Shown here: one piece after another, positions 3,712-53,507 of the stretch
Position numbering within the stretch: position 1 is the stretch's first letter
How the letters are laid out: every line of letters begins with the position of its first letter
Source: Myxococcota bacterium
GTDB lineage: Bacteria; Myxococcota_A; UBA9160; UBA6930
Reading direction: 5' to 3'
NCBI GenBank assembly: GCA_041605395.1
Contig: JBFIYM010000003.1
Coordinates: 1-56,111 of the forward strand
Length of the DNA stretch: 56,111 bases
The notes under the pieces: generated by a model
What the model saw: the letters and a program-made list of their open reading frames with translations, nothing else
The model's database searches: none
What the model was told of the DNA's origin: nothing
Made by a program: the position numbers and the translations under genes

Positions 3712-5264
3712 GACGCCCCCTCGCCGCTCGCCGTGGTCGCGCACTCGGCTTCGGGCAGGTCGGGAGCGAGCGGCTGCCTCCCGAGGGCTTGCACCTCGGC
3801 GCGTAGCGCCTCGAGCGCGGTCCGGACGCGTCGCGCCTCGCCCTCGGCGGCGTGGACCAGGCGCACGCGCCGGCGGTCCACGCGCTCCTGGAGCTCGGCC
3901 TCGCGCCCCTCGAAGAGGCGTTGCGCGAGCCAGGTCGCGCCCTCCCGGCTGGTGCAGTCGCGCGGCGGACACGCCGCCACGAGCACGCCCGCGGCGCCAC
4001 CGCGCAGCAGGGCCTCCACGACCGAGGTATGGAGATTCCCGCCGCAGCCCACGGGGAGGACCGGTGCGCCCTCGACCTCGTGCCGCGCAGCCAGGCCGCC
4101 CGCACCCCTGCGGCACGCCACGAGGACGACCTCGTCGCGCGTCTCGAGACGCTCGGCCGCGAAGGCCCGCGCGGCCGCGAGCTGCTCGCGGCCCGTGCGT
4201 CCCGGGGGCCCGACCGCCATCGGCGCACAGGAGGCCGCGCACACGCCGCACGAGACGCAGCGCGCAGGGTCCACGTGCGCCGCCAGTCCGGTGGGGTTGG
4301 TCGTGACGGGCAGCATCGTGATGGCGTCGAACGGACAGTCGATCGCACACTGCTCGCAGCCCGTGCAGAGGTTGGGGTCGACGAAGCTCGGCGCGGGGCG
4401 ATCGGCCTCTCGCGGTCGCGTCCACCAGGGAACCGAGAGAACCAGGGCGGCGCCCAACGTGAACGCGATCCAGCTCGCGCCCGGGCCCATCGCGCGGCTC
4501 ACCGGCAGCCAGAAGGAGTAGAGCCAGTCGACCGGGACCGGGCCCGGAAGGCGATCGAGGGCGGCCGGCGGGCCGAGCGGAGCCGGCGCCACGATCGAGG
4601 CGAGGAACAGGAGAGACAGGGTGGCCCCGGTGAGCGCGCGCGGGGGCAGCAGCACGGGCCGGGCGATCCGAGAGACGTGGAGCCAGAGGCCGAGCGCCAT
4701 CCCGATCGGAAGCGCGATGTGGGCGAAGAGGTTCAGGAAGAAGAACGCGCTCGGAATCGGCCGATCGCCCACGAAGGCGCGCCCGATCGGCTCCGAGAAG
4801 ATCGGGAGCGCGTCGAGCAGGCGAGCGCCCTCCTCGGCGAGGAGCTGGCCGTGCGCGTCCCACACCATGACGTAGCCGGTCCACCCGCACACGAAGGTCA
4901 GGAACAGGAGCGTCACGCCCGAGACCCAGGCCAGCGCGCGCGGTCCCCAGCTCCGCCCCTGCACGAGCATGCGAAAGCCGTGGAGCACGCCCGCCACGAC
5001 CGCGAGGTCCGCCGCGTAGCGATGAAGCGCCCGGATCCAGCGGCCGGAGAGCCACTGCGCGTCGATGCGTTCGATCGACTCGAAGGGGCCGCCGATGCGG
5101 TAGAAGAGCAGCAGGTAGAGGCCCGTCACCAGCATCACCGCGAAGGCGAGCAGGACGAGGGCACCCGACTGGTGCAGCGGGTTCCCGCGCCAGCCGTGGA
5201 GCCGCTGGAACACCACGTCGGCAGCGGCCAGGGGCCGGCGCAGGAGATCGAGAGCGGACGCCAT
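3708..5264 (-). CDS. Cytochrome b (di-heme) / 2x[4Fe-4S] ferredoxin / MvhD-like Fe-S domain fusion
   Basis: Four heme His in RALHRYAADLAVVAGVLH and AHIALPIGMALGLWLH, plus W.SGV..L and GWTGY.MVWD. Two clusters: CTGCEQCAIDCP and CVSCGVCAASC. C-terminal VAC...GCGG...ACPPRDC...EG resembles MvhD/FlpD. Confidence 0.85.
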   Translation of the reverse strand: MASALDLLRRPLAAADVVFQRLHGWRGNPLHQSGALVLLAFAVMLVTGLYLLLFYRIGGPFESIERIDAQWLSGRWIRALHRYAADLAVVAGVLHGFRMLVQGRSWGPRALAWVSGVTLLFLTFVCGWTGYVMVWDAHGQLLAEEGARLLDALPIFSEPIGRAFVGDRPIPSAFFFLNLFAHIALPIGMALGLWLHVSRIARPVLLPPRALTGATLSLLFLASIVAPAPLGPPAALDRLPGPVPVDWLYSFWLPVSRAMGPGASWIAFTLGAALVLSVPWWTRPREADRPAPSFVDPNLCTGCEQCAIDCPFDAITMLPVTTNPTGLAAHVDPARCVSCGVCAASCAPMAVGPPGRTGREQLAAARAFAAERLETRDEVVLVACRRGAGGLAARHEVEGAPVLPVGCGGNLHTSVVEALLRGGAAGVLVAACPPRDCTSREGATWLAQRLFEGREAELQERVDRRRVRLVHAAEGEARRVRTALEALRAEVQALGRQPLAPDLPEAECATTASGEGAS

Positions 5265-5379
5265 GCGGGGGCGGAGTCTTGCGGGGCCGGTGCGGGACGC
5301 AACGCGGCGGGGCGCCCCGGCGCTGGGGCGCGATGCCTCTACCGGATTGCCCCAGCCCCTTCCCGTCGGCGCAGCGGAG

Positions 5380-5395
5380 CGGCACGCGGCGTGCA
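5380..5395 (+). promoter_or_regulatory. Putative sigma-54 (-24/-12) promoter of the heme-copper operon
   Basis: CGGCACGCGGCGTGCA has GG-N10-GC spacing and is close to the consensus TGGCACG-N4-TTGCW. It lies about 25 bp before the first start codon. Confidence 0.6.
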
Positions 5396-5420
5396 GTCGC
5401 ACCGGGCGGAGGTGCCCGTG

Positions 5421-5585
5421 GTGGATCCGAACGAGCCCGAGTCGAACGAACGTGTCCCGCTGGGCCAGCGGCTGCTGGACCGTCCCTTCCTTCTCCTGAT
5501 CGCGTCGATCGTGGTGATGTTCGTCTTCTACACCGGCTGGGGAATGGTCGAGATCGCCTCGCTCGGGGATGCACCCCTGCCGTAG
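5421..5585 (+). CDS. Small single-TM accessory subunit of the heme-copper enzyme
   Basis: GGAGGT RBS then GTG. Sequence ...PLGQRLLDRPFLLLIASIVVMFVFYTGWGMVEI..., placed directly before subunit II. Confidence 0.7.
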   Translation: MDPNEPESNERVPLGQRLLDRPFLLLIASIVVMFVFYTGWGMVEIASLGDAPLP

Positions 5586-5642
5586 CGCCGGGCCGACGAC
5601 GCGATCGCAGAGCCGACACCCCGCGACGGAGGAGAGCACGGG

Positions 5643-6209
5643 ATGTACCGCACCGGAATCGAGGCACCCCAGGGCATCTGGTGGAAGCCGGTCCACCGCA
5701 GCGAGAAGGTCTGGGTCACCATCGCATTCGTCTGGTGTCTCGTGTTGTTCGCGATGATGCCGCTCTGGCACCTGCGCGGCGGGCAGAACCCGTCGGGCAT
5801 CCGCCATCGGGTCGAGCCCGAGGCTTTCCGGGCACGCGTGAACGAGTTCATCGCCGAGTACCAGGTCGACACCGACCAGGGAATGCCCGTGGTGGCGCCG
5901 CCGCCTGGGAGCCACATCTACCTGCAGGCCCAGATGTGGATGTGGCTGCCGGTGCTGCGGCTCGAGGAGAGCGCGGAGTACGTGCTCCATCTCTCCTCCG
6001 TGGACGTGAACCACGGCTTCAGCCTGTTCCCGCTGAACGTGAACTTCCAGGTCGTGCCCGGTTACGACTACGGGCTGCGCGTGAAGCCCACCCAGAGCGG
6101 GGAGTTCCAGATCCTCTGCAACGAGTTCTGCGGCGTCGGCCATCACCTGATGGTGGGCAAGGTGATCGTGGTTCCGGCCGGCTCCGGCGCCCCGGGAGCG
6201 GCGCGATGA
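5643..6209 (+). CDS. Heme-copper oxidoreductase subunit II (CuA)
   Basis: One TM helix. CuA ligands in DVNHGF and CNEFCGVGHHLM. Confidence 0.92.
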   Translation: MYRTGIEAPQGIWWKPVHRSEKVWVTIAFVWCLVLFAMMPLWHLRGGQNPSGIRHRVEPEAFRARVNEFIAEYQVDTDQGMPVVAPPPGSHIYLQAQMWMWLPVLRLEESAEYVLHLSSVDVNHGFSLFPLNVNFQVVPGYDYGLRVKPTQSGEFQILCNEFCGVGHHLMVGKVIVVPAGSGAPGAAR

Positions 6210-7924
6210 GCAGCCGAACTTGTCCGACGACGGGCCTCCAGGTGCATGCCACGGCCGACGCCTTGATCAAGTCGCACGCCGTCGCCGCGACGGTGGCGCT
6301 GCTCGTCGGCGGCGTGGCCGCGCTCCTCGTGCTGCTCACGCGGTGGCAGGCCGTCCACCTCCTCGACGCGGTGTGGTTCTACCGGCTGCTGACCGTGCAC
6401 GGCATGAACATGCTGATCTTCTTCATCATCTTCTTCGAGATGGCGGTGCTCTACTTCGCTTCCGCCGTCCTGCTCTCGTCTCGCGTGCCCGCACCGAAGG
6501 TCGGCTGGGCCGCCTTCGGCCTGATGGTGGTAGGCACGCTCCTGGTCGAGTGGACCATGTGGACCGGTCAGGCCGACGTGCTCTTCACGTCCTACGTGCC
6601 GCTGCGCGCCGCTCCCAACTTCTACCTGGGCGTGATCCTGTTCGCGGTGGGTGCGCTCGTCGTGGTCGGCCAGTTCTTCGCGACCCTCGTGGTCGCGAAG
6701 CGCGAGCGCACCTACACCGGCTCGGTGCCGCTCGTGACCTTCGGCGCGCTCACCGCCGCCATCATCGCGGCCGTGACGCTGCTGCACGGCGCCCTGGTCT
6801 ACATCCCCACCTGGCTCTGGTCGATGGGAATGATGCAGATCGACCCGCAGTGGTACCGGCTGGTCTGGTGGGGCCTCGGCCACTCCTCCCAGCAGATCAA
6901 CGTCGCCGCCATGGTGTCGATCTGGTACCTGCTCGGCGCCTTCACCGTCGGCGCGGTGGTGCTGAACGAGAAGGTGAGCCGCGTCGCGTTCGTCCTCTAC
7001 ATCCTGTTCATCTCGATGGCGTCGGCGCACCATCTGCTGGTGGACCCCGGCATGGGGCCGGCCTGGAAGGTCTGGAACACCAGCTACTTCATGTACATGG
7101 CCGTGCTCGCGAGCATGATCCACGGCTTCACCGTGCCGGCCGGGGTCGAGGTGGGACAACGCCTGCGCGGAGCGGGCCGCGGCCTCTTCGACTGGCTGCG
7201 CCACGCGCCGTGGGGCGACCCCGGCTGGAGCTCCCTGGTCTTCTCGATCACCGTGTTCGGCTTCGTGGGCGGCATCACCGGCGTCACCTTCGGCACCGAG
7301 CAGATCAACATCATCGCGCACAACACGCTGCGGATTCCCGGGCACTTCCATGCCACCGTCGTGAGCGGCACGGCCCTCGCCTTCATGGGCGTCACCTACT
7401 ACGTGATCCCGCTGATCTTCCGGCGCGAGGTGTCCTTCTTCCGGCTGGCCAGGATCCAGCCCTACCTGTTCGCGATCGGCATGCTGGTCTTCTCGATCGC
7501 GATGACGTTCGCCGGCACGTTCGGCGTGCCGCGGCGGCACTGGGACATCACCTTCTCGGGCGCGCCGTTCATCGCCCAGTTCTCCCCGGCCGTGGACGTG
7601 GTGATGGCCGTGACGGCGCTCGGCGGCCTGCTCGGCATCGTGGGCGGCGCGATCTACATCCTGGTGACCGTCCACTCCGTGTTCTTCGGCCGCCGGCTCG
7701 CGCCCGACGAGAGCGGCGTGGGCGCGGTCGGCAAGGGCCTGCCGCTCGGCATCGTGAAGCCGCCCCGCGCGCTCGGCCCTGGCGACGACGACAGCGCCCT
7801 GCCGGCGACACCGGTCGGCCCGGTTCCGGGAACGATGGTCCTGGTGGGCGTCTTCCTCGTGGCCTTCGTCGTCTACTACTTCGTGAACTGGAAGCTCCTC
7901 TCCGTGGTGTGGCAGGTCGGCTGA
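6206..7924 (+). CDS. Heme-copper oxidoreductase subunit I, B-family-derived, probably eNOR-type nitric oxide reductase
   Basis: LTVHG, WGLGHSSQQIN, SAHHLLVDP and HNTLRIPGHFH supply all six His ligands. The His-x3-Tyr tyrosine is replaced by Gln. ATG overlaps the subunit II stop. Confidence 0.85.
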   Translation: MSSRTCPTTGLQVHATADALIKSHAVAATVALLVGGVAALLVLLTRWQAVHLLDAVWFYRLLTVHGMNMLIFFIIFFEMAVLYFASAVLLSSRVPAPKVGWAAFGLMVVGTLLVEWTMWTGQADVLFTSYVPLRAAPNFYLGVILFAVGALVVVGQFFATLVVAKRERTYTGSVPLVTFGALTAAIIAAVTLLHGALVYIPTWLWSMGMMQIDPQWYRLVWWGLGHSSQQINVAAMVSIWYLLGAFTVGAVVLNEKVSRVAFVLYILFISMASAHHLLVDPGMGPAWKVWNTSYFMYMAVLASMIHGFTVPAGVEVGQRLRGAGRGLFDWLRHAPWGDPGWSSLVFSITVFGFVGGITGVTFGTEQINIIAHNTLRIPGHFHATVVSGTALAFMGVTYYVIPLIFRREVSFFRLARIQPYLFAIGMLVFSIAMTFAGTFGVPRRHWDITFSGAPFIAQFSPAVDVVMAVTALGGLLGIVGGAIYILVTVHSVFFGRRLAPDESGVGAVGKGLPLGIVKPPRALGPGDDDSALPATPVGPVPGTMVLVGVFLVAFVVYYFVNWKLLSVVWQVG

Positions 7925-8933: not shown

Positions 8934-10154
8934 GTGTTCTACGGCTGGCGGATGGTCGGCGTCGCCTTCTACGCGCACCTGGTCGCGTCGGGCCTCGGCT
9001 TCTACGCGCTGCCGCGGCTGCTGGTGCCGCTGGCGGAGGAGCTCTCCGACGGGCAACGCGCCGGGGTGGCGCTGCTCACGGCCGCGATGAGCGTCCCGGG
9101 CGTCGTCGTCGGCCCGCTCGTGGGCCGGGCGCTCACGCGCTTTCCGCTGCGCACCGTGATGCCCTGCGGCGCGGCCGTTCTGGTCGTGGGCTTCCTGGCC
9201 GCCTCCCAGGCCACCCGGCTCTGGCACCTGGTCGTCGTGTACGCCACGGTGGTGCCGATCGCCGTGAGCGCGCTCAGTGCGATTGGCGCCAACGCGCTGG
9301 TCGGCAACTGGTTCGACCGCCGCCGCCCCCTCGCGCTCGGTCTCTCCCAGTTCGGGCTGTCGATCGCCGGCGCCGTGATGACCTTCTTCATCAGCTGGAC
9401 GCTCGCGCAGGGCGGCTGGCGCGGGACGTACCTGTGGTTCGCCGGCATCGCATTCGTCTCGGCGCCGCTGCTCCGGCTCACCGTCTCCGACCGGCCGTCG
9501 GAGCGGGGCCTTCGGCCCGACGGCGCCACGGAGGGCCCGGAGGATCCGGCTTCGACGCGGCTCCCGACCCTCACCTTCGGCAGCGCCCTGCGCGACGCGC
9601 GCCTCTGGCTGATCGGCATGGCCGCCGGGCTCGCCTTCGCCGGCACCACGGGGCTGGTGCAGAACATCCACGCCTTCGCGACCGACGCAGGCTACGCGGA
9701 CCGCGAGGCCGACACCGTGCTGGCCGTGATCTCGCTCTTCGCAGCGTTCGGAAAGCTCGTGTTCGGCTACCTCGGCATCCGCTTCGGGGAGCGCGCCACC
9801 TTCTGGATCGCGCTGCTCGGACAGGCGCTGGCGATGGCACTGCTGCCCATGGCCCGCACCTCGCTTCCGCTGCTGCTCGTGGCGGGCGCCGGCTTCGGCC
9901 TCACGCTCGGCGGCGTCATGCCGGCGCTCGCCGCACTGCTGGCCCGCATCTACGGGGCGGCCGGCTTCGGCCCGGTGATGGGGTACCTCGCACCGATGCT
10001 GGTCCCCTTCCAGATGTTCGGCGCCCCGATCGCTGCCGGCGTCCACGACTGGACGGGGAGCTACGACCCCGCGATCTACGGCTTCGCCGTCGGCTGCCTC
10101 GCGGCCGCGGCGGCACTGCTCCCGGTGCGGCTGGCTCGAGCAGGCGGGCGCTGA
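8934..10154 (+). CDS. MFS transporter (OFA/MCT-like)
   Basis: About 12 hydrophobic segments, GNWFDRRRPLALG, GVHDWTGSY. Confidence 0.85.
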   Translation: MFYGWRMVGVAFYAHLVASGLGFYALPRLLVPLAEELSDGQRAGVALLTAAMSVPGVVVGPLVGRALTRFPLRTVMPCGAAVLVVGFLAASQATRLWHLVVVYATVVPIAVSALSAIGANALVGNWFDRRRPLALGLSQFGLSIAGAVMTFFISWTLAQGGWRGTYLWFAGIAFVSAPLLRLTVSDRPSERGLRPDGATEGPEDPASTRLPTLTFGSALRDARLWLIGMAAGLAFAGTTGLVQNIHAFATDAGYADREADTVLAVISLFAAFGKLVFGYLGIRFGERATFWIALLGQALAMALLPMARTSLPLLLVAGAGFGLTLGGVMPALAALLARIYGAAGFGPVMGYLAPMLVPFQMFGAPIAAGVHDWTGSYDPAIYGFAVGCLAAAAALLPVRLARAGGR

Positions 10155-10188
10155 GCCGGGGAGATCTTCTTCGGACCCGAGGCGCTCG

Positions 10189-11520
10189 CTACTCGAGGCC
10201 GAGGCGCTTCATCTTCTTGCGCAGCCCGTGGCGCGTGAGGCCGAGCGCTCGCGCTGCGTGGGTGCGGTTCCCGCCGCAATGCGCGAGCTCCGCCCGGATC
10301 GCCTGGAGCTCCAGCTGGGCGACCCGGTCCCGAAGCTCGCCCATCGCGTAGAGAGGCGGGAGCTCGGTCCGGTCGTCCGGCAGGTGCTGGATCGAGATCG
10401 GCTCGTCGGGCTCCGCCATCGCGATCGCGCGCTCGACGAGGTTGCGCAGCTCGCGCACGTTCCCACGCAGGTCACGCTGTGCCAGCGCCTCGAGAAAGTC
10501 CTCACCCAGCGCCACGCGGCGGGCCAGGTCGGTGCCGAGCTGCTCGGCGAAGTGCTGTGCGAGGAAAGGGATGTCGACGCGACGTCGGCGCAGCGGCGGC
10601 AATTGGATGGTAACGGCGTTGATTCGGTAGAAGAGATCCGCCCGAAACGAGCCCTCCTCGATCGACTGCTCCAGGCTGCGATTCGTGGCGGACACCAGGC
10701 GCACGTCGACCCGGATGGCCTCGGTCTCCCCGAGTGGACGCAGCTCTCCGCTCTCGAGAACCCGCAACAGCTTCGTCTGCAGCGCGAGCGGCATGTCGCC
10801 GACTTCGTCGAGGAACAACGTCCCGCCGTGAGCCGCACGGAATAGACCACGATGCGAGCGTTCGGCGCCGGTGAACGAGCCCTTGCGGAAGCCGAACAGC
10901 TCGGCCTCGAGCATGGTTTCCGGCAGAGCCCCGCAGTTGAGCGCGACGAAGGGCCGCTCCGCTCTCGGACTGCGGGCGTGAATGGCCCGTGCCACCAACT
11001 CCTTGCCGGTGCCGGTCTCGCCGAGGATGAGCACGGAGGTACGGGTCGGACCGACCCGCGCGATCTCCTCGGTGACGTCCCGCATCGCACGGCTCACGCC
11101 GAGCAGCGCCAGGGCCGGACGATGCTCGGCGCGCGCGCTCCGCGCGACGCCCGGGTCGAGACGATCCAGCAGATAGCGCAGTGCGGGTACAGGGGCGGGA
11201 TGCGACAGCAGCTGTAGGGGCCGTAGGCGTGAGAGCGCCGGCTCGAGGACCGCGTCGGGACATCCGTCCACGATCATCAACAGCGCATTCCCGGCCTGGA
11301 GGCTGCACAGGGGCTCGAGCGCCGCGAGGTCCCCGACCCTCGCGTCGCGGGGCAGACACAGCACCGCACAGACCGCGTCGAGATGTGGGCGGGGATCCTC
11401 GAGGTCGCGCGGCGCGACGTCGTGGACGTCCCGGTCTTCGCCGAGGAGCCGCCGGTAGTGCGCGCGGAGCGCCGCGTCCTCGGCGACGAGCAGGACGCTT
11501 CCCCGCTTCGCCTCGCTCAA
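10189..11520 (-). CDS. Sigma-54-dependent transcriptional activator (bEBP) with degenerate receiver domain
   Basis: GETGTGKE, ELFG..KGSFTGA, LFLDEVGD, FRADLFYRI, GNVREL, and a Fis-type HTH. TTG start overlaps the upstream stop. Confidence 0.9.
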   Translation of the reverse strand: MSEAKRGSVLLVAEDAALRAHYRRLLGEDRDVHDVAPRDLEDPRPHLDAVCAVLCLPRDARVGDLAALEPLCSLQAGNALLMIVDGCPDAVLEPALSRLRPLQLLSHPAPVPALRYLLDRLDPGVARSARAEHRPALALLGVSRAMRDVTEEIARVGPTRTSVLILGETGTGKELVARAIHARSPRAERPFVALNCGALPETMLEAELFGFRKGSFTGAERSHRGLFRAAHGGTLFLDEVGDMPLALQTKLLRVLESGELRPLGETEAIRVDVRLVSATNRSLEQSIEEGSFRADLFYRINAVTIQLPPLRRRRVDIPFLAQHFAEQLGTDLARRVALGEDFLEALAQRDLRGNVRELRNLVERAIAMAEPDEPISIQHLPDDRTELPPLYAMGELRDRVAQLELQAIRAELAHCGGNRTHAARALGLTRHGLRKKMKRLGLE

Positions 11521-12665
11521 CCGCAGCCGACCGGGGGCAGCAGCAGCTCGAAGCGGGCGCCCCCGCCGAGCGACTTGCCGACCCGGATGCTCCCGCCGAG
11601 CTCTTCGACGATCTTCTGGACCACGGCCAGCCCGAGACCGATGCCGCGCGCCTTGCCGAAGGTCACGAAGGCGTCGAACAGCTGGTCTGCAATCTCGGGC
11701 GGGATGCCGGGGCCCGTGTCGCTCACCGCGAGAAGGGCGCTGCCGTCGGCGAGACGGGTCTCGATGCGCAGCACACCGCCCTCGGGCATGACGTCGAGCG
11801 CGTTGTCCACGAGATTGAGCAGCACGCGGCGGAGCCGTGCCTCGTCGAGCGATACGATCGCGCGGGACTCGAGATCGACCTCGAGCGCCACGCCGTAGCG
11901 AGAGGCACGCGCCGAAACACCGACCAGCGCAGCGTCCACGACGTCGTCGAGCGGTTCCGGGCGGCAACCTGCCTGCCCCTGGCTTACATGGGAGACCTCG
12001 AGAAGCTCACTGCACATGTGCTGGAGACGGTCTACCTCGTCGACCACCGTGCGACCCAACTCGACGAGAGAATCGTTCCCGGCGTCGCTGACGATCTCGG
12101 AACCCGCGCTGCGAATCGTCGTGAGGGGGCTGCGTAGGTCGTGCACGATCATGGCGATCATGCGTCCGATCGCCGCGAGGCGTTCCGAGGCGATGGTGCG
12201 CGCCTGCGAGTCGCGGAGCGCCGTCAGGGTCTCCTCGAGCTCCCGGTTCTTCGCGGTGACCAGCGTCAGCAGGCTGGCGTTCTCGCGCGCCAGGCGGACG
12301 CGCTGGAGGACGCCCGTCACCGCGGCCTGCAGGTCGGCCGGCAGACAGGGCTTGTGGAGGTATGCGTGAACGCGGCCCAGGTTGATGGCATCCACGCTCG
12401 CCTGGAGGTCCGTGTATCCGGTGAGCAGGATGCGCCCTACGGTGCCGTCGTGTTCGGCCACCATGCGAAGGAGCTCGATGCCGCTCATGCCGGGCATGCG
12501 CTGGTCGGAGATGACGAGATCGACGCCACCCCCCTGCACGAGCGCGAGCGCCTCCTCCCCGCGTTCCGCGTAGGACACGCGGGCCACGCGCCGCAGGGAG
12601 CGGACGATCAGCTCGAGGGCGCGGGGCTCGTCGTCGACCGCAACGATGTGGGGCAACGCGCTCAT
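11517..12665 (-). CDS. Hybrid receiver-histidine kinase
   Basis: REC motifs VDDE, VISDQRMP, LHKP. H-box VHDLRSPL, N-box NLVDNA, DTGPG, GIGLGL. Confidence 0.92.
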   Translation of the reverse strand: MSALPHIVAVDDEPRALELIVRSLRRVARVSYAERGEEALALVQGGGVDLVISDQRMPGMSGIELLRMVAEHDGTVGRILLTGYTDLQASVDAINLGRVHAYLHKPCLPADLQAAVTGVLQRVRLARENASLLTLVTAKNRELEETLTALRDSQARTIASERLAAIGRMIAMIVHDLRSPLTTIRSAGSEIVSDAGNDSLVELGRTVVDEVDRLQHMCSELLEVSHVSQGQAGCRPEPLDDVVDAALVGVSARASRYGVALEVDLESRAIVSLDEARLRRVLLNLVDNALDVMPEGGVLRIETRLADGSALLAVSDTGPGIPPEIADQLFDAFVTFGKARGIGLGLAVVQKIVEELGGSIRVGKSLGGGARFELLLPPVGCG

Positions 12666-15145
12666 CCGGCTGGTCTATCGGCCGGCGCACTGCCGGCTTG
12701 AGGCGCATCCTCCGGGAGGCGGATGGGCAGATCGAGGATGAAGCAGGTGCCGCGCCCCGGCCCGCTGCGCACGCCGAGCGTGCCGCCGTGGCGCGTCACG
12801 ATTCCGTAGCTGAGGGCCAGGCCGAGGCCGGTCCCCTTTCCCACCTCCTTGGTCGTGAAGAAGGGCTCGAAGATCCGGCCGCGCGCCTCCGGGGGAATGC
12901 CCGGCCCGTCGTCCTCCACCTCCACGATCACACGGTCGGGGCCATTGCACGCGGTCCGCACGCGGATCGTGCCCCGCTCGCCCAGGGCGTCTGCCGCGTT
13001 CGCGAGGAGGTTCATGAAGACCTGGTCGAGCTGGCCCTCGATGCACTCGACGGTCGGCGTCTCGCCGTACTCGCGCTCCACCTCGATGCCGATCAAGCGA
13101 CCCTGGAGGAGGTTCAGGGTCGCTTCGAGCGAGGTGCGCAGGTCGATCTCGGAACGGCGACCGCCGTCGGCGCGCGAGAACGAGCGGAGGTCGCGGACGA
13201 TGGTGGCCGTGCGCTCGACGCCCTCCGCGCATGCGGCCAGCAGGCTCGGGAGGTCCTCGACGGCCCAGTCGAGGTCGAGCCGTGCCCGCGCTTCGGCCAG
13301 ACGCTCGGTGAGCGCGGGGGCGTACTCGCCAGCGATCTTCTCGTACTCGACGATCGCCGTGCACAGGGAGTCGACGTGCTGGCGCAGGAACTGCAGGTTT
13401 CCCTCGACGAAGTGCAGCGGGTTGTTGATCTCGTGAGCCACGCCGGCGACGAGCTGGCCTAGCGACGCCATCTTCTCCTGGTGCGCCATCTGCCGCTGCG
13501 TGTCGCGCAGGGCAGTGAGGGTCGCCGCGAGCTCTGCCGTGCGCTCCTGGACCTTGCCCTCGAGCGTCTCGTTGAGCTCACGCAGCTGCTCGAGCGCGAG
13601 TGCCTTGGCCAACGCGAGGGCGCCCTGGCTGGCCAGGTTGCGTAGCAGCCGACGCTCCTCGGCGCCGTAGCGACGCCCCGAGAGCCGCCGGCCGAGTGTG
13701 AGCCGCGCGAGGGCGCGACCGTCGAGGGCGAAGGGCACCCGCAGGCCGCCGGCCGGCAGGTCCTCCAGGCGCTCGTCGTCCGCTGCGCTCGGCTCGTGGC
13801 CCGGTGCGACGTCGAGGTGCAGGGTCTCGGGCTGCAGCGCCTCACGCACCGCGTCCTCGATCACGGCGCGGATGCCGTCGAGGTCGGTCACCCGCGCGAG
13901 TCGCTGCAGAGCCTCCTCGAGCAGGCGACGGAAGTCGACGCTGGTACGGAAGAAGAGGCGGTCGACGCTCGACTGGAAGCGGTCACGCAGCGGCAGCAGG
14001 GCGGCAACCGCAAGCCCCGAGAGCAGCACCGCCGGTGCACGTCGCGAGATGCCGAGGGTCTCCTGCAGGAGGAGGTCCGTCAGGCTGACGGCGCCCGCGA
14101 ACGCGGCCGCCGTGAGGGCCGAAACCAGTATGTAGCTGGTCAGGCGCCGCAGCCCCGCGTCCACGCCGAGCAGATCCTCTCGCAGCACGGCGTAGGCGAT
14201 CGCCACCGGGAACAGGATGGCCGTCCAGCCCGCGAGGTTCTCGGGCACACTGCCGCCAGTCATGGCAGAGGCGAGCGCGAGCAGAATCGGCCCGAGCAGC
14301 GCGAGAAATGCGCCTGCCGCCAGGACCTTCACGCGCTGGCGCGACTCGAAGTCGATCGGCCGCAGATGGGCCCAGACCTGCAAAGCCACCAGTACGGGGA
14401 GCGCCGAGCCGAAGGCGCCGATGGCTACCCGGTGGCTCGTCACGTAGTGCGACGGGTCGTACAACCCGAGCTGCATGAGGACGCCGAACCCGGCGCTGAC
14501 CGCGTACGGCAGCGCGAGCAAACGCGGTCTGGCGACGAGCCAGGCGCGTCGGAAGGGGAACACGGCCGCGAAGTGCAGCACCGCAGCGAACAGCAGGCAC
14601 TCCAAGAAGGCGTGCAACCGAAACAATCGGTAGGGCCCGTAGAGATCCACCGCGGTGAGTGCGTACAGACCGACGATGTAGAGCGGCACCGCGCTGCTTC
14701 GAGCCGGACCCCGGCCGAGGAATCGGATGGCGAGTGCAGCCGCCACCAGCGAGAGCCCGCTCGCAAAGTAGGAGCCGAACAGGAGCAGGTAGTCGAGCCC
14801 CGAGAAACGGCGCGTCGCGATGGGGTGTGACGAGTTCTGGTCGCCGCTTCGCAGCTCGTAACGCACCTCGCTCCCGACCGGAAGGCGCCGGACGTGATGG
14901 GCGAGGTCACGGGCGTCGGCGAGCGGACGACCCTCCACCGCGACCACCTCGCGCTGGTAGATGCTGCTGTCCGCCACGGCCGGCCAGTGCGCCAGACCCG
15001 CGGAAGCCACCACGCGGTTGCCGAGTAGCAGGAAGCCCGGGAAGGGGCGCCCCACCCAGCCGCTCGACTCGGTCAACACGAGGAGCGTGATCGCGAGCGC
15101 GAAGAAGGCCGCGATCCAGGAAACGATGTCCCGCTGGCGTCGCAC
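12662..15145 (-). CDS. Membrane sensor histidine kinase (PDZ-like extracellular domain, multi-TM, GAF-like, HisKA/HATPase)
   Basis: H-box VAHEINNPL, NLLANA, DDGPG, FFTTKEVGKGTGLGL. The N-terminal half has about 9 hydrophobic segments. The start is uncertain (GTG 15145 chosen). Confidence 0.88.
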   Translation of the reverse strand: MRRQRDIVSWIAAFFALAITLLVLTESSGWVGRPFPGFLLLGNRVVASAGLAHWPAVADSSIYQREVVAVEGRPLADARDLAHHVRRLPVGSEVRYELRSGDQNSSHPIATRRFSGLDYLLLFGSYFASGLSLVAAALAIRFLGRGPARSSAVPLYIVGLYALTAVDLYGPYRLFRLHAFLECLLFAAVLHFAAVFPFRRAWLVARPRLLALPYAVSAGFGVLMQLGLYDPSHYVTSHRVAIGAFGSALPVLVALQVWAHLRPIDFESRQRVKVLAAGAFLALLGPILLALASAMTGGSVPENLAGWTAILFPVAIAYAVLREDLLGVDAGLRRLTSYILVSALTAAAFAGAVSLTDLLLQETLGISRRAPAVLLSGLAVAALLPLRDRFQSSVDRLFFRTSVDFRRLLEEALQRLARVTDLDGIRAVIEDAVREALQPETLHLDVAPGHEPSAADDERLEDLPAGGLRVPFALDGRALARLTLGRRLSGRRYGAEERRLLRNLASQGALALAKALALEQLRELNETLEGKVQERTAELAATLTALRDTQRQMAHQEKMASLGQLVAGVAHEINNPLHFVEGNLQFLRQHVDSLCTAIVEYEKIAGEYAPALTERLAEARARLDLDWAVEDLPSLLAACAEGVERTATIVRDLRSFSRADGGRRSEIDLRTSLEATLNLLQGRLIGIEVEREYGETPTVECIEGQLDQVFMNLLANAADALGERGTIRVRTACNGPDRVIVEVEDDGPGIPPEARGRIFEPFFTTKEVGKGTGLGLALSYGIVTRHGGTLGVRSGPGRGTCFILDLPIRLPEDAPQAGSAPADRPAG

Positions 15146-15204
15146 GAGGTCTCTTCGGAGCGGCCGCTGCCCGGCTAAAGAGGGCGCGCCGCGGCTCCGA
15201 TGGG

Positions 15205-16788
15205 TTGCCGGTTCCGAGGAGGGGCCGCGTGGCCCGCGTGCTCGCCGTCGTGCTCTCAGCCGCCCTCTACGGCCTGAGCTTCCCCCCGTTCGGCCTCGTT
15301 GGGCTTGCCTGGGTCGCCCTGGTGCCGCTGCTCTGGGCCCTCCGGGGCGCCTCGCTTCCGGCTGCGCTCGGGCTCGGCTACGCCTGGGGCGCGCTCGCGA
15401 CGCTGCTGGTGATCGCGTGGGTCGTGCCGACCCTCCAGGGTCACTTCCAGGCACCGCTCGGTTGGAGCCTCGCGTTCTGGCTCGGCCTCGGGGCCACGAC
15501 GGCGGCGCCCTACGCGGCGATCGCACTCGCTGGCTTCGTCGTGGCCGCCCGGCGCGTCTCGCTCGCTCTGCGCCCCGTGTTGTTCGTAGCCGCGTGGGTG
15601 AGCTTCGAGTACGCGCGAAGCGAGCTGCTGCTGCGGTCGCCCTGGGCTTCGCTCGCGCAGGTGCAGGCGGGTACCCCCTGGGTGCTCCAGGTCGCGGCCC
15701 TGACCGGCGCGTATGGCGTGAGTGCGCTGCTGGCATGGACGAACGCCGTGGTCGCCGAGCTTCTCGGGCAGCTTCGGGACACGTCGGCCCGGCGCGAGGC
15801 CGGAGCCCGGTTGGCGCCGCTCTGCCTCCCGCTCCTGCTGGTGCTGGGCGCCCTCCTCGTGTCGGAACGCCCGGCGCGGCCGGAGGGGGGCCTACGTGTC
15901 GCGCTCGTGCAGGGCAACGTCGAGCCCGAGCTGCGCTGGCGGCGCAGTGCAGCCGGCCGCGTGCTGAGACGCTACGTCGGGCTCACCCGTGACCTGCTGC
16001 GCGAAGCCAGCCAGGCGCAGCCGGACCTGATCGTGTGGCCCGAGAACGCGGTACAGACCAGCGTCGATGATCCGACCTACGGCCCTCCGCTGCGCGCGCT
16101 GGCTCGTCACGGCGTTCCGCTCCTCCTCGGCGCGCCCCGGAGCGAGCGTTGGAACGCGGAGCGCCTCCACTTCAACAGCGCCTTCCTGCTGCGCCCCGAC
16201 GGGACCCACGAGCACTACGACAAGCGGCGCCTGCTTCCCTTCAGCGAGACCCGCCCGCTCGGCCGCTGGGCCGGCATCGACACGCCGGGCGATGCCGACG
16301 CTTCCGAGTACACGGCCGGAGCCCGTCCCGGCCTCTTCGACGTCGCGGGTGAGCGCGTCGGCGTGCTCATCTGCGTGGAGGCGCTCGATGCCCGGTTGGC
16401 ACGCGAGCTCGCCGCAGCCGGTGCGACGCTGCTCGTCAACCTCTCGAACGAGAGCTGGTTCGGCGGGCGCGGCGGTGCGGAGCAACATCTCCAGCAGGCG
16501 GCGCTCCGGGCCGTGGAGACCGGCCTCCCCGTGGTTCGCGCAACGACCACGGGCGTCACGGCGGTGATCGCACCGGACGGGCGCGTCGTGGCCTCACTGC
16601 CTGCCGATCGGTCCGCCGTCCTGGATGCGCGTGTTCCGGCGCCACGTTCGGGCGGGACCTTCTACCGCCGCCACGGGGACCTCTTCGCGGCGCTCTGCAT
16701 TGCGGTCTGGCTCGGCGCACTCGCCCCCAGCGTCCGCTCCGAGCTCCAGCGAGGAGCGGTCAGCAGGTCCCCACGCGCGGCCGCATAG
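15205..16788 (+). CDS. lnt: Apolipoprotein N-acyltransferase (Lnt) paralog 1
   Basis: N-terminal TM bundle, VQGNV, and a nitrilase triad E (WPENA), K (YDKRRLLPFSE), C (ICVEA). Also LVNLSNESWF, LRAVE, and C-terminal TFY.RHGD. Confidence 0.88.
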   Translation: MPVPRRGRVARVLAVVLSAALYGLSFPPFGLVGLAWVALVPLLWALRGASLPAALGLGYAWGALATLLVIAWVVPTLQGHFQAPLGWSLAFWLGLGATTAAPYAAIALAGFVVAARRVSLALRPVLFVAAWVSFEYARSELLLRSPWASLAQVQAGTPWVLQVAALTGAYGVSALLAWTNAVVAELLGQLRDTSARREAGARLAPLCLPLLLVLGALLVSERPARPEGGLRVALVQGNVEPELRWRRSAAGRVLRRYVGLTRDLLREASQAQPDLIVWPENAVQTSVDDPTYGPPLRALARHGVPLLLGAPRSERWNAERLHFNSAFLLRPDGTHEHYDKRRLLPFSETRPLGRWAGIDTPGDADASEYTAGARPGLFDVAGERVGVLICVEALDARLARELAAAGATLLVNLSNESWFGGRGGAEQHLQQAALRAVETGLPVVRATTTGVTAVIAPDGRVVASLPADRSAVLDARVPAPRSGGTFYRRHGDLFAALCIAVWLGALAPSVRSELQRGAVSRSPRAAA

Positions 16789-17747
16789 GCGACGGAGGCG
16801 GGAAAGATCCAGGCCGTGAGAGCCAACGCGTTCGCCGGCGAGCTTCCCCCCGTCAACAGCTCGGCGAGCGTCAACGAGATCGGTAGGCCGAAGGCGAGCG
16901 CGGCGCCCAGTGCAAGCGTGCGGAGCCTCGCGCGAACGTCGACCGAGAGCGAGGTGCGGAACCGCTCGAGCTCGGAGATCACGAGAACGAGCAGAGAGGC
17001 GCCGAACGCGCTCACCGCGACCAGATGCGAGCCGGTGTAGGCGCTCGCTACGTCCAGGCGGGCCACCGTGAACCCGCCCAGCCCGAGCCCGGCCGCGTAG
17101 AGCGACAGCGGCAGCCAGGGGAATCGGTCGAGCAGGCGCGCCCGCTGCGGGAAGCCGAGTGCCATGTGGAGCGCGGCGGGGCCGAGCAGGGCTTCGCACA
17201 TGGCGTGCACCCCGAAGAGACGATAGGGGCCGTAGAGGTCGAGCGCGCTCAAGGTCCAGAGCGACCCGATCAGGAGCGCGGGGGCCGCGCACGCCGCGGT
17301 GGGATTGCGCCGACGCGCACCGAGCGCCACCAGCCCCGCGGCGCCGAGCGCAATCCCGTTCACCGCGTACATGCCGTAGAGCAGCATGAAGTCGCGGACT
17401 CCGAACCGGCGCGTCTCGATGACGCGTCGCTCCGAACGTTCTCCGCGTCGGAGCTCGTAGGCGACGGGCGTCGCCACCGGCAGGCGGCTCACGAGCGCGC
17501 GCACGTCGACCGCGGACGTGACGGCACGACCGTCGGCGGACACGACCCGGTGCTGGAAGATCTCACCCCCCGCCGTGCCCGGCCAGATCGAGAGACCGAC
17601 GGAGGCGACGACACCGTTCTCGAGGAGCAGGAAGCCCGGAAACGGCCGCTCCAGCTGCGAGACGGCGCCGAGCCCACCGGTGATTCCGACCGCGACGATC
17701 AGCGCCGCTGCCACGGCGAAGAGACGATCTTGGAAGAGGCGTTTCAT
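16662..17747 (-). CDS. Stand-alone receptor-like membrane protein (paralog of the kinase sensor region, no output domain)
   Basis: Shares RPFPGFLLL, DLYGPYRLF, LH...FP and FP...AYA with the 12662-15145 kinase, but ends just after the last TM helix. Confidence 0.8.
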   Translation of the reverse strand: MKRLFQDRLFAVAAALIVAVGITGGLGAVSQLERPFPGFLLLENGVVASVGLSIWPGTAGGEIFQHRVVSADGRAVTSAVDVRALVSRLPVATPVAYELRRGERSERRVIETRRFGVRDFMLLYGMYAVNGIALGAAGLVALGARRRNPTAACAAPALLIGSLWTLSALDLYGPYRLFGVHAMCEALLGPAALHMALGFPQRARLLDRFPWLPLSLYAAGLGLGGFTVARLDVASAYTGSHLVAVSAFGASLLVLVISELERFRTSLSVDVRARLRTLALGAALAFGLPISLTLAELLTGGSSPANALALTAWIFPASVAYAAARGDLLTAPRWSSERTLGASAPSQTAMQSAAKRSPWRR

Positions 17748-17778
17748 GGGACTCTCCGATCGCTACGCGTGAGGCGGC

Positions 17779-18837
17779 CTAGTCGAGCGAGATCAGCGTG
17801 CGGGCGGGCTTGTTCTGGACCCCGAGGAAGCGGGCGACGGCATCCATCACCTCGTCCATGAAGACCCCGGGCTCGAGCGGTCCCGCTGCGGGCGTCACGG
17901 TGATCACCAGGTCCATCTTCGCGGCCCCGGGCGCCAGGGGGACCCCTTCCGTGTCGTCCGCATTCCGACGCTGGAGCGCGTTGATCGCCAGCACCAGACG
18001 GTGGTGGTCGATGTGCAGGCTGCCGTCCGGGTGTCGGCCGTCCGTATCGACCGCGTGCGAACCCCCGGCATCGTGCGCGGCGGTATAGGAGTGGAACTCG
18101 TGGCGCCAATACGAGAGGACGTCGCTCGACCGGTCGCTCTTGAGCCGGTTGACCTTGTGTTCGAAGACGTCCCCGTGGAGGTCCTTGTCCCCTTCGACGC
18201 GCCAGCCGAAGTAGCTGCCCCACTGGCGCTCCGTCGCGTCGTCGGCGCTCATCGTGAAGAGTGTGAGGTCGACACCATCTGCGTTGTAGATCACGACGTC
18301 CTCGACGCCGAACGCGAGTGGACGATCGACGGCGATGAAGGAGAGCTGCATCGCATCCCGGATGTCCGTGACGTCGAGCGGGAGCAGCAGCGTCCCGTCG
18401 GCCGCAACCGCCGACTCGTGCCGCGAGATCCCGAACTCGCCCCCGCCGGGCGGCAGACGCGGCGCGGGAGGCAGCGCCGTGAAGAGCGCGTCGCCATACG
18501 TGCGGAGATAGCCGTTCCCGGAGACCTTGATCGACTTGGGTCCGGGAGCGCTGCCGAGGGCTGCAGGGACCTTCACGCTCAGATAGCCGGCGTCACCCGC
18601 AACCACGTCCACCAACGCGGCCGTACCGAACTCGACGCGATAGCTGGCGCCGACCTGGAAGTCGGCGCCGTCTGCGTGGACGCGGATGTTCGAGCCCGGC
18701 GAGGCGAAGGACGGTGAGATCAGCGTCCACGGCGGGGCGGGATGATCACATCCGCAACCAGCTCGAGCGGGCGCGATCGCGGCGAAGCTGGTCGCGAAGA
18801 CCAGGAAGAGCAGACCAACTCGGACCGTTCCCGACAT
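17779..18837 (-). CDS. Secreted protein with N-terminal GCGCDH motif
   Basis: GGAGGT RBS. Signal peptide MSGTVRVGLLFLVFATSFAAIAPARA followed by GCGCDHPAPP. His-rich later segments (YWRHEFHSY, HIDHH). Confidence 0.8.
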   Translation of the reverse strand: MSGTVRVGLLFLVFATSFAAIAPARAGCGCDHPAPPWTLISPSFASPGSNIRVHADGADFQVGASYRVEFGTAALVDVVAGDAGYLSVKVPAALGSAPGPKSIKVSGNGYLRTYGDALFTALPPAPRLPPGGGEFGISRHESAVAADGTLLLPLDVTDIRDAMQLSFIAVDRPLAFGVEDVVIYNADGVDLTLFTMSADDATERQWGSYFGWRVEGDKDLHGDVFEHKVNRLKSDRSSDVLSYWRHEFHSYTAAHDAGGSHAVDTDGRHPDGSLHIDHHRLVLAINALQRRNADDTEGVPLAPGAAKMDLVITVTPAAGPLEPGVFMDEVMDAVARFLGVQNKPARTLISLD

Positions 18838-18866
18838 GGGTGATGACCTCCGTGGGAGGTCGCTTG

Positions 18867-18882
18867 AGCAAGCTCCGTGCCA
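18867..18882 (-). promoter_or_regulatory. Sigma-54 (-24/-12) promoter
   Basis: Minus strand reads TGGCACGGAGCTTGCT, an exact match to TGGCACG-N4-TTGCW, 30 bp upstream of the 18837 ATG. Confidence 0.88.
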
Positions 18883-19022
18883 GGCGGGGATGGCACGGCG
18901 AGCGGCACGGGAGCGGAGTAGGTGCGGCCGCGGCGGGCGAAGCGTCACGACACGGCGGCCCCTCCCGGCAGCCCACAGGCAGCTGCGCGCCCAAGCAGGC
19001 GAGACGTCGGTGTCGATGCGCC

Positions 19023-19065
19023 TGGCAACTTCGTCACCACCCTCGAGTGGTAACCGCCGTTACCA
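19023..19065. promoter_or_regulatory. Tandem palindromic sites, probable bEBP upstream activator sequences
   Basis: TGGCAAC-ttc-GTCACCA (19023-19039) and the perfect TGGTAAC-cgcc-GTTACCA (19048-19065), 140-185 bp upstream of the sigma-54 promoter. Confidence 0.65.
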
Positions 19066-19214
19066 GCAAGACCGCCGCGCCGCCGTCGGCGCAGGGAGGC
19101 TGCGCCTCTTCGGACCGCGGCCGGGCTCGCGCGGCGCGTGGACCATCGCCGCGGCGGCGTGGTCGACGAGCCTGTCGATGCGATGGTCCAGCCGCTCCGC
19201 GAGCGAAGTCGCTC

Positions 19215-19775
19215 CTAGGCCTCGCGATCCTCGATCGTCGCGTACCAGTCGAAGCTGCCGCGCGGCACCCAGCCCGGCATCTTCGGGCCCTTCTGGAGCC
19301 GTTCGACCATCTTCGGCGTGAGCTTCCCCTGCTTCGCCATCAGCTTGAAGATCTGCCCGGCGTTCGTGTGGTCGAAGAAGTCGCGCTGCCAGGCCCACTG
19401 GTAGTTGCCGGCATAGCGGAACCAGGAGCCGCCGGTGCCGCCGATCTCGTAGGGCTGGCCATCCTCGCCCTCGACCGGCGCGATCTGGCGCCAGATGCCG
19501 ATCACCTCGCCCTTCTGGTCGTCGATCAGCGTGCGGACGTAGGGGTAGGTCCACTTCTCGAGGCCTTCCATCTCGGTGCCGAACACCCAGTCGTGGATCT
19601 GCTTGCGGCCGCGCGCGGCGAACTCCCACTTCGCGCCGTTGTTCCAGGTGTAGAGCGCATCCTCGGCGTAGAACTCCGCGAGCGGCTGCCAGTCGCCGGT
19701 GCGACCGGCCTCGTCGTTGGCGGCGACGAAGCGGCGCACCATCTCCTCGAGCTCGGCGCGGGGAAACTTCGACAT
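19215..19775 (-). CDS. SnoaL/NTF2-like protein (resembles the mycobacterial cyp51-cluster protein Rv0762c)
   Basis: GDWQPLAEFYAEDA.YTW, EMEGLEKWTYPY, GGSWFRYAG..QWAWQRDFFD. Lies next to the ferredoxin gene. Confidence 0.8.
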   Translation of the reverse strand: MSKFPRAELEEMVRRFVAANDEAGRTGDWQPLAEFYAEDALYTWNNGAKWEFAARGRKQIHDWVFGTEMEGLEKWTYPYVRTLIDDQKGEVIGIWRQIAPVEGEDGQPYEIGGTGGSWFRYAGNYQWAWQRDFFDHTNAGQIFKLMAKQGKLTPKMVERLQKGPKMPGWVPRGSFDWYATIEDREA

Positions 19776-47641: not shown

Positions 47642-47675
47642 TTTCAGACGACTTAATTATTGCAGTTGCCTGAAA
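47642..47675. promoter_or_regulatory. Tandem palindromic operators upstream of the TetR gene
   Basis: TTTCAG-acga-CTTAAT and TTGCAG-ttgc-CTGAAA (consensus TTTCAG-N4-CTGAAA), 18 bp apart in an AT-rich patch. Confidence 0.65.
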
Positions 47676-47695
47676 TTAATGGTACTGCTGAGGCC

Positions 47696-51185: not shown

Positions 51186-51194
51186 CATCGCGCG

Positions 51195-53494: not shown

Positions 53495-53507
53495 GCCCGG
53501 GGGAGGG

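Follow-up and report, generated by a model that had tools for sequence, protein, structure and literature searches.

The window, a 56,111-nt stretch of Myxococcota DNA (contig JBFIYM010000003.1 of assembly GCA_041605395.1), carries a conserved gene island around a secreted protein whose predicted mature N-terminus begins with Gly-Cys-Gly-Cys (GCGC). This island had been proposed to be a self-contained sigma-54 feedback circuit, in which a receptor would act through a phosphorelay on a bacterial enhancer-binding protein (bEBP) and thereby induce the secreted protein in an autoinduction-type loop. Our analysis agrees with the view that the circuit looks real, but its purpose is probably the lipidation of an envelope protein and not autoinduction. 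Judged by gene content and conservation, the region is one conserved envelope module of three transcription units, namely the secreted protein with a receptor-only protein, a sensor kinase with a receiver (REC)-kinase and the bEBP, and an Lnt-like N-acyltransferase. The best explanation of the whole, which in our judgment has an even chance of being right, is an N-lipidated envelope protein that is switched by sigma-54 and the bEBP and is accompanied by a receptor paralogue, a kinase with a PDZ-like domain and seven transmembrane helices (PDZ-7TM), the REC-kinase, and a dedicated Lnt paralogue. The features of the locus are:

17779-18837, minus strand: secreted protein, 352 aa, with a signal peptide ending in AxA, the mature start GCGCDHPAPP, an IPT/TIG domain (about residues 38-124), and a His-rich C-terminal domain
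16662-17747, minus strand: kinase-less receptor paralogue (receptor-only protein), 361 aa, with a first transmembrane helix (TM1), a PDZ-like periplasmic domain, and a 7TM bundle
15205-16788, plus strand: Lnt-like N-acyltransferase paralogue, 527 aa, with LNT_N and CN_hydrolase domains
12662-15145, minus strand: sensor histidine kinase, 827 aa from the GTG at 15145, with PDZ-7TM input, HisKA, and HATPase_c
11517-12665, minus strand: REC-histidine kinase hybrid, 382 aa, with an intact receiver (DD, D, T, K) and an H-box
10189-11520, minus strand: bEBP, 443 aa, with a degenerate receiver-like N-domain, an AAA+ sigma-54 interaction domain (GSFTGA loop), and a Fis-type helix-turn-helix (HTH)
18838-19214: 377-nt spacer containing the repeats and the promoter
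18882-18867, minus strand: sigma-54 -24/-12 promoter TGGCACGGAGCTTGCT, with a predicted start site near 18856
19023-19039: proximal inverted repeat TGGTGAC-GAA-GTTGCCA (minus strand), imperfect, centred about 175 nt upstream of the predicted start site
19048-19065: distal inverted repeat TGGTAAC-GGCG-GTTACCA, a perfect 7+7 repeat, centred about 200 nt upstream of the predicted start site
19215-19775, minus strand: SnoaL-like gene of the gene map, upstream of the spacer
8934-10154, plus strand: transporter of the major facilitator superfamily (MFS)

The bEBP starts with a TTG that overlaps the TGA of the REC-kinase gene, the ATG of which in turn overlaps the sensor kinase stop codon (ATGA). The island as one unit does not stand, because the plus-strand Lnt-like gene, a conserved core member that the original prediction had overlooked, lies between two minus-strand halves and is transcribed away from the kinase operon and towards the secreted-protein operon; hence the three transcription units. 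The receptor-only gene begins 31 nt past the secreted-protein gene. The open reading frame (ORF) listed for the sensor kinase (1024 aa, to 15736) is over-long, with the GTG at 15145 as the likely start. The Lnt-like gene and the receptor-only gene share 127 nt at their 3' ends (16662-16788). In the Lnt-like protein, homology to relatives ends near residue 500 of 527, and in the receptor-only protein it ends near residue 329 of 361; as the genome (a 4.13-Mb assembly of 235 contigs, 88.9% complete) is moreover stop-poor at 72% G+C, these overlapping tails may be non-functional read-on. In the following, genomes are labelled G (G000 being the genome of the window) and fetched loci L; L036 belongs to G014, L125 to G008, and L011 to G028. 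In L036, a 230-aa receiver-only ORF and an IS110-family transposase lie between the receptor-only and REC-kinase genes (12340-14184), an insertion that may have disrupted a gene.

The secreted protein has no match among the Pfam and NCBIfam models, and a protein library gave 125 matches to it, with no informative name among the 120 matches listed; at E<=1e-30, the family comprised 147 cluster representatives. Among the 40 relatives that were searched, homologues were found in five (G014, G005, G008, G026, and the divergent G028). In a 38-member alignment, A26, G27, C28, G29, C30, Y243, R245, H246, F248, Y251, H255, H269, H275, and H278 are invariant. The 178 distinct N-termini of the family have a Pro-rich stretch before the cut, followed by A (138), V (21), S (12), T (4), or G (3) at position -3, a variable position -2, and Ala at -1 in 176; after the cut come Gly (178), Cys (178), Gly (177), and Cys (178), then D/N/A/E/S, H/K, and PPP. 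By these statistics, the N-terminus is a predicted signal peptidase I site with Gly directly after AxA, and then CGC. A lipobox with cleavage before Cys28 was considered and rejected, as the residue three positions before the Cys is mostly Q (33), E (26), W (20), R (20), or D (19), and a Pro-rich c-region precedes it.

In the AlphaFold2 model of the secreted protein (predicted local distance difference test, pLDDT, 85.6), residues 38-124 have an IPT/TIG fold, with Z 9.1 to 3hrp_A (root-mean-square deviation, rmsd, 2.2; 80 aligned) and Z 8.6 to the TIG domain 2cxk_A. A profile match to domain D of cyclodextrin glycosyltransferase (CGTase; E 1.5e-5) was obtained for the same region, which has no Pfam match. 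For the C-terminal domain (residues 125-352), Foldseek/VIA searches with the whole model gave matches that covered residues 38-124 only, the ESM Atlas gave no usable match, and Pfam gave none at E<=10. In many library proteins of 500-1000 aa, P0140-P0152 among them, the match is confined to profile positions of about 5-205 (signal, GCGC, IPT, and the next beta domain), so that the N-terminal part of the family is joined to other C-terminal domains as well. The homologue in L011 (9716-10800) keeps a sigma-54 site and has lost both the GCGC motif (mature end QSISCDFPNP) and the His cluster.

The Lnt-like protein contains PF20154 (LNT_N) and PF00795 (CN_hydrolase) and reaches 257.9 bits with TIGR00546 (cut-off 132.9). 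All 49 Lnt sequences compared have E280, K340, E348, and C390, the mapping of the catalytic Glu-Lys-Cys to E. coli numbering being based on spacing. The own genome gave five LNT_N matches, and G003, in which the secreted protein found no match, has a single Lnt. A quick IQ-TREE phylogeny (LG+G4, 49 rows, high-scoring segment pairs of <380 query residues dropped; "module-linked" denotes the locus of origin) placed the 33 module-linked Lnts in two supported clades of 7 and 26 rows, with the window gene in the 7-row clade (support 100). A further clade of one-per-genome Lnts (6 rows, support 100) contains the only copy of G003 and the copy on contig C15 of the own genome, and no module-linked Lnt. 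Conservation was examined in 73 loci that encode the secreted-protein family (76 family genes), collected by a scan of GTDB genomes. The Lnt is found in 29 of the 73 loci, and in 15 of the 32 that have at least 9 kb on both sides; in several lineages its gene adjoins or overlaps the secreted-protein gene, often co-directionally and directly behind it. According to tree and neighborhood, the Lnt-like gene of the window is a dedicated paralogue, not the housekeeping Lnt, and a core member of the module.

A second Lnt-like gene of the window (51195-52700, plus strand) directly follows a LuxC-type acyl-CoA reductase gene (48606-51185); its neighborhood (47660-55868) also encodes a TetR regulator, an adenylate/guanylate cyclase, and a luciferase-like monooxygenase, and in the tree this Lnt groups with a G014 paralogue outside the module clades. 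On contig C204 of the own genome (G000:C204, 2516-6495), an Lnt-like gene is followed by an overlapping 967-aa ORF, which is PDZ-7TM-like at its N-terminus and matches kinase residues 175-521, so that a pair of Lnt and sensor kinase occurs more than once in this genome. On G000:C158 (3602-6599), a further Lnt-like gene (5214-6599) and another bEBP gene (3602-5095) are transcribed away from each other.

To our knowledge, acylation of an N-terminal glycine by an Lnt homologue has been described for the enterobacterial Aat system only. AatD, an Lnt homologue, N-acylates the invariant N-terminal glycine of CexE and Aap, which are cut by signal peptidase I (Icke et al. 2021, PMC7943197). The substrate features named there, a signal for signal peptidase I without lipobox, an invariant N-terminal Gly, and an Lnt homologue nearby, are all found with the GCGC protein. 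On the basis of this precedent, we propose that the secreted protein is lipidated by the Lnt paralogue, and by this analogy it is probably N-lipidated.

Three points weigh against lipidation. No Aat/Lol-like (AatPABC) transporter was found among the ORFs of the window locus and of the annotated loci L036 and L078; 11 of the 32 well-flanked family genes have neither Lnt nor sensor domain nearby; and the two Cys (C28 and C30) and five His (H246, H255, H269, H275, and H278) that are invariant, together with the nearly invariant D31 and D271, could equally mark a metal or redox site. All three would suit a soluble periplasmic or extracellular protein that is metal- or redox-active by means of its N-terminal CxC and His cluster, with the Lnt acting on other substrates. 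We regard this as possible, if rather improbable, since it leaves without a role the Gly that directly follows the cleavage site in all 178 N-termini and the tether-like PPP behind it, and since the adjoining or overlapping Lnt genes in several lineages, the separate clades of the module Lnts, and the AatD/CexE precedent (PMC7943197) all argue for a lipidated protein.

With regard to the control of this putative lipoprotein, the perfect -24/-12 promoter that had been predicted close before the gene was borne out: TGGCACGGAGCTTGCT is an exact consensus, a gap of 29 nt that contains GGAGG separates it from the ATG (18837), and rpoN is present in the own genome (PF04552, 213 bits, G000:C131). When searched as TGGCAC-N5-TTGCW with up to one mismatch, the site at 18882-18867 is the sole match in the 56-kb window; at 0 mismatches, a match arose in 1 of 100 shuffles (mean 0.01), and the 4.13-Mb assembly has 15 exact matches. 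The orthologues in G014, G005, G008, and G026 have TGGCA[CT]GGNNCTTGCT 47-50 nt before the start, and the divergent G028 homologue has CGGCACGACGCTTGCT as its upstream sigma-54 site. A site with up to two mismatches lies 20-80 nt before the start in 28 of the 76 family genes, where about 0.3 would be expected from the background of 161 such sites in 2,199,822 nt of the same DNA, and in 9 of the 10 genes of the window's own N-terminal type (AGCGCDHPPP). L034 and the metagenome loci L123, L124, and L127 also have the site. The metagenome scan yielded five loci at 46-51% identity and recovered none of the 60-66% identity proteins known from the protein library. No sigma-54 site precedes the family genes of L077, L078, and L081, which is as expected because these genes lie within an operon, directly behind a kinase gene. 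Rfam gave one chance-level match only for 18700-19300 (E 0.86). Taken as a sequence-based reading, a sigma-54 promoter with its own upstream enhancer is well supported. This regulatory part itself is ordinary, being one of many in a genome with 23 bEBP matches.

Two palindromes had been predicted 140-185 bp upstream of the promoter. Both are present, 141-183 nt upstream of its 5' edge with centres 25.5 nt apart, and they are the only two matches to the predicted palindrome pattern in the assembly, with 0.06 expected from base composition for a pattern that was itself written from these two sites; the proximal one, however, is imperfect. On the plus strand it reads TGGCAAC-TTC-GTCACCA and thus has the GGCAAC/GTTGCC half-site that is common to related loci. 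Scans of 10000-19400 returned 0 sigma-70 promoter-like sites and one terminator-like site (10195-10210), and as this is the sole such site, we rejected the idea that the palindromes are a recognisable terminator of the upstream SnoaL-like gene. Lineage-specific inverted or tandem repeats are also found about 110-190 nt upstream of the promoter in related loci:

G005: GACAAC-N3-GTTGTC, two copies
G014: imperfect copies of the G005 repeat
G008, G026, L032, L035, and G028: sites containing GTTGCCGG
L027-L029: GAAACC-N2-4-GGTTTC
Binatia-type loci: TGTGCCA-N4-TGGCACA
L124: TGGCAAC-GCC-GTGACC and CGGCAAC-CCG-GCGACC
L123: CGGCAAC-CGC-GCGACCA
L127: TTGGTCAG-CTTC-TTACCAA

The L124 and L123 sites (GGCAAC-N3-G[CT]GACC) resemble the proximal repeat of the window and have an equal distance to the promoter, and the L127 site resembles the distal repeat. 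In G005, both perfect GACAAC-N3-GTTGTC copies of the genome sit at the orthologous promoter. GGCAAC/GTTGCC occurs between -240 and -100 in 11 of 17 promoter-bearing genes of the DH type; the controls were 3 of 17 between -100 and 0, 5 of 16 between -380 and -240, and 1 of 22 genes of the K type. The motif was to be conserved before orthologues, and this is so for the sigma-54 site and for the arrangement and distance of the repeats, but the repeat sequence is lineage-specific. In terms of sequence comparison, the putative enhancer is conserved in its arrangement and not in its sequence. Apart from the promoters, L128 (G014:C1:982030-982080) has a tandem of GCAAC-GGG-GTTGTC and GACAAC-GAG-GTTGTC between two convergent genes, of the same type as the G014 and G005 enhancer repeats and with no sigma-54 site within about 1 kb.

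The candidate activator is the bEBP of the island. Pfam recognises Sigma54_activat (8.4e-70) and HTH_8 (3.4e-11), and the protein has the AAA+ domain, the GAFTGA-type loop, and the C-terminal HTH that characterize bEBPs of the NtrC family; the sigma-54 interaction loop is GSFTGA in the window and GAFTGA in three of four orthologues. Full-length orthologues, which are 52-56% identical, occur in four arrangements relative to the secreted-protein gene. On the single G008 contig in L125, the secreted-protein and receptor-only genes are followed by bEBP, REC-kinase, and kinase genes in the opposite direction and then by the Lnt gene in the first direction, and L124 has the gene order of the window, with a bEBP that is 54% identical. 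G028 has the orthologue directly upstream of its divergent secreted-protein homologue, and in G026 a C-terminal bEBP fragment lies directly upstream of the secreted-protein gene. The recognition helix changes with the repeats: GLRQKM is paired with GTTGCCGG in 4 of 4 loci, GLGKK[VI] with GTTGTCG in 2 of 2 loci of one genus, GLTKMM with GAAACC/GGTTTC in 3 of 3 loci, and GLRKK (window and L124) with GGCAAC-N3-GT[CG]ACC. The bEBP N-domain was found in 4 of 5 relatives with the secreted protein compared with 5 of 35 relatives without it, and the fifth relative with the protein, G014, has a full-length bEBP orthologue. In line with what had been predicted, linkage in several gene orders and the co-variation of helix and repeats suggest that the island bEBP is the likely activator of the secreted-protein promoter.

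Several observations speak against this assignment. As the own genome gave 23 tblastn matches to the bEBP, there are 22 other candidates and the identity of the activator cannot be assumed. The G014 and G005 orthologues are unlinked to the secreted-protein locus, any bEBP is found in the fetched DNA of just 7 of the 73 family loci, and in L027-L029 the place directly upstream of the gene is taken by another activator, which is of the true REC-AAA-HTH type. The sole perfect GACAAC-N3-GTTGTC copy of G014 is flanked by convergent genes and has no sigma-54 site near it, and all comparisons of helix and repeat are among relatives, so that the co-variation is confounded by relatedness. The promoter could thus be real and yet be activated by another bEBP of the genome, with the island bEBP serving other targets, as might be the case in the five relatives that have its N-domain and where the secreted protein was not found, and with the palindromes binding a different factor. 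Such an exchange of the activator is unlikely in our view, as it would have to accommodate a linkage that is kept across at least four gene orders, a recognition helix and a repeat sequence that change together, and an assembly with no further copy of the repeat.

Upstream of the island bEBP as likely activator, the route from the kinases is less straightforward than the predicted phosphorelay. The H-boxes of the sensor kinase and the REC-kinase are intact, and the receiver of the REC-kinase has kept the acidic pair, Asp, Thr, and Lys. The N-domain of the bEBP, however, is not matched by the Pfam receiver model (Response_reg) at a threshold as loose as E<=10, does not have the Asp, Thr, and Lys that phospho-accepting receivers conserve, and in five orthologues shows no conserved catalytic position of a receiver. 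Alignment to receivers with hhalign is co-linear but weak (probability 11%, 115 columns), with a Cys at the position of the phospho-acceptor Asp and a His or Asp at that of the Lys. A canonical phosphorelay to the bEBP is therefore not supported. As the N-domain is a predicted pseudo-receiver, control of the bEBP probably works through protein contact, presumably with the REC-kinase, and not through Asp phosphorylation; the weakness of the alignment counts against our explanation.

The receptor-only protein is 44% identical to residues 14-326 of the sensor kinase. Its AlphaFold2 model (pLDDT 90.7) shows TM1, a beta-rich PDZ-like periplasmic domain, and seven helices. Matches of the predicted domain to the PDZ domains of DegS, MucD, and HtrA are weak but consistent, with Foldseek E values of about 0.02 for DegS (3gdv_C, rmsd 3.0 over 92 columns) and MucD (2.5 over 84), and weak profile matches go only to PDZ chains, the best being the YlbL PDZ domain 2kl1_A (E 0.0011). 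Neither the PDZ nor the HisKA_7TM models of Pfam match the receptor at E<=10; its Atlas neighbors carry PDZ families, and one cluster has HisKA_7TM (PF16927) in 10% of the members. The 7TM part gave only generic 7TM matches, and those resembling G-protein-coupled receptors (Z 10-11) are below the trustworthy level for helical bundles, so that we read this part as a seven-helix bundle only. N44, W55, Y172, H181, E185, and Y237 are invariant in 40 receptor sequences, with H181 and E185 lying within the membrane part.

As the kinase operon is not preceded by a sigma-54 site, the best candidate having four mismatches, the regulators are not under the promoter that the bEBP is predicted to activate; only the kinase-less receptor is co-induced. 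Self-contained feedback is thus not supported, and neither is an autoinduction loop with the secreted protein as signal. A closed positive loop would require that the PDZ-7TM kinase has the secreted GCGCDH protein, whole or in part, as its ligand and that a canonical phosphorelay to the bEBP yields more ligand and receptor. This reading could draw on the PDZ-7TM paralogue directly after the secreted-protein gene in many loci, on the sensor domain in 35 of the 73 family loci, and on PDZ domains such as that of DegS, matched here by fold, that bind peptide ends, but it is distinctly unlikely given the missing phospho-acceptor and the separately controlled regulators, an induced receptor that has no kinase and would fit damping as well as amplification, family C-termini that are not conserved as PDZ ligand according to the alignment, and a conserved Lnt paralogue for which it does not account.

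For the switched and lipidated envelope protein that we favor, we infer the following course. The PDZ-7TM kinase would sense an envelope or periplasmic cue and phosphorylate the intact receiver of the REC-kinase. The bEBP, regulated at its pseudo-receiver N-domain by protein contact rather than Asp phosphorylation, would bind the inverted repeats with its HTH and remodel the sigma-54 holoenzyme. The promoter would then drive a two-gene operon for the Sec-exported protein and the kinase-less PDZ-7TM receptor paralogue. Signal peptidase I would cut the exported protein after AxA and expose Gly-Cys-Gly-Cys, which the dedicated Lnt paralogue would N-acylate as AatD does with CexE. The acyl chain would tether the IPT/His-rich protein to a membrane via the PPP linker, and the co-induced kinase-less receptor may feed back on the kinase.

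An extension of this course, tentative and rather doubtful as it stands, is a widespread non-canonical lipoprotein pathway in Myxococcota, Binatia, and Thermodesulfobacteriota, in which signal peptidase I exposes GCGC, the dedicated Lnt N-acylates Gly1, and the two Cys are perhaps S-acylated as well, with PDZ-7TM kinases that would sense the lipidated product or the lyso-lipid formed as by-product and a sigma-54 switch that would match synthesis to lipidation capacity. The eukaryotic MGCxC dual-acylation motif of the Lck type is a parallel for the combination of Gly N-acylation and Cys S-acylation. If the proposed lipidation of the GCGC protein holds, glycine acylation would be an old and widespread lipoprotein route without Lgt and Lsp, and the locus would offer a defined signal-to-output system for studying it. 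The locus would also be a clean test of how two kinases control a bEBP with a dead receiver.

Enhancer-dependent sigma-54 promoters of the NtrB/NtrC type, with glnAp2 as the paradigm, are the closest counterpart of the regulatory part. A GG-N10-GC promoter, tandem dyads 100-200 nt upstream, an AAA+ activator with GAFTGA-type loop and Fis-type HTH, and kinase genes adjoining the activator gene are common to both, whereas the activator of the window has an N-domain that does not look like a functional receiver, an extra REC-kinase is present, and the regulator operon lacks a sigma-54 site. The PDZ-7TM input is predicted to join a periplasmic PDZ-like domain, as in DegS-type PDZ sensors, to a 7TM part as in HisKA_7TM kinases; unlike these, it has neither the Pfam matches mentioned above nor a protease domain.

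The XrtA/PEP-CTERM system with PrsK/PrsR works in a like manner, in that a protein family with a short processing motif has, along with its processing enzyme, a sensor kinase and a sigma-54 activator of its own. However, the proteins of the window score far under the cut-offs of these families (TIGR02916, 297.8 vs 502.6 bits; TIGR02915, 75.1 vs 300), the motif is N-terminal here, and the enzyme is Lnt-like and not an exosortase. The Lgt-Lsp-Lnt pathway shares with the module the Lnt fold and catalytic residues and a Cys near the end of the signal peptide, with "AGC" resembling the last three lipobox positions. In contrast to this pathway, position -3 is Q/E/W/R/D and not L/V/I, the c-region, which is polar and rich in Pro and has AxA, suggests signal peptidase I, and the own genome has a separate Lnt of the housekeeping type (C15).

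The module also resembles the Aat system (PMC7943197), since there, too, a dedicated enzyme of the Lnt family stands beside its presumed substrate, which has a signal for signal peptidase I, no lipobox, and an invariant Gly1, and the catalytic E-K-E-C is kept. The module differs from Aat in its phyla (metagenome-assembled genomes of Myxococcota, Binatia, and Thermodesulfobacteriota vs Enterobacterales), in an unrelated substrate (IPT and His-rich domain, GCGC motif), in annotated loci without an AatPABC-like transporter, and in its control by sigma-54 and a two-component system vs AraC/XylS-type regulators; acylation in the module is a prediction. A literature search of main texts found no paper describing this module. 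Its novelty lies in the cargo and its partners, an AxA/GCGC protein, an Lnt paralogue of its own, and predicted PDZ-7TM kinases, which are linked to each other across several phyla.

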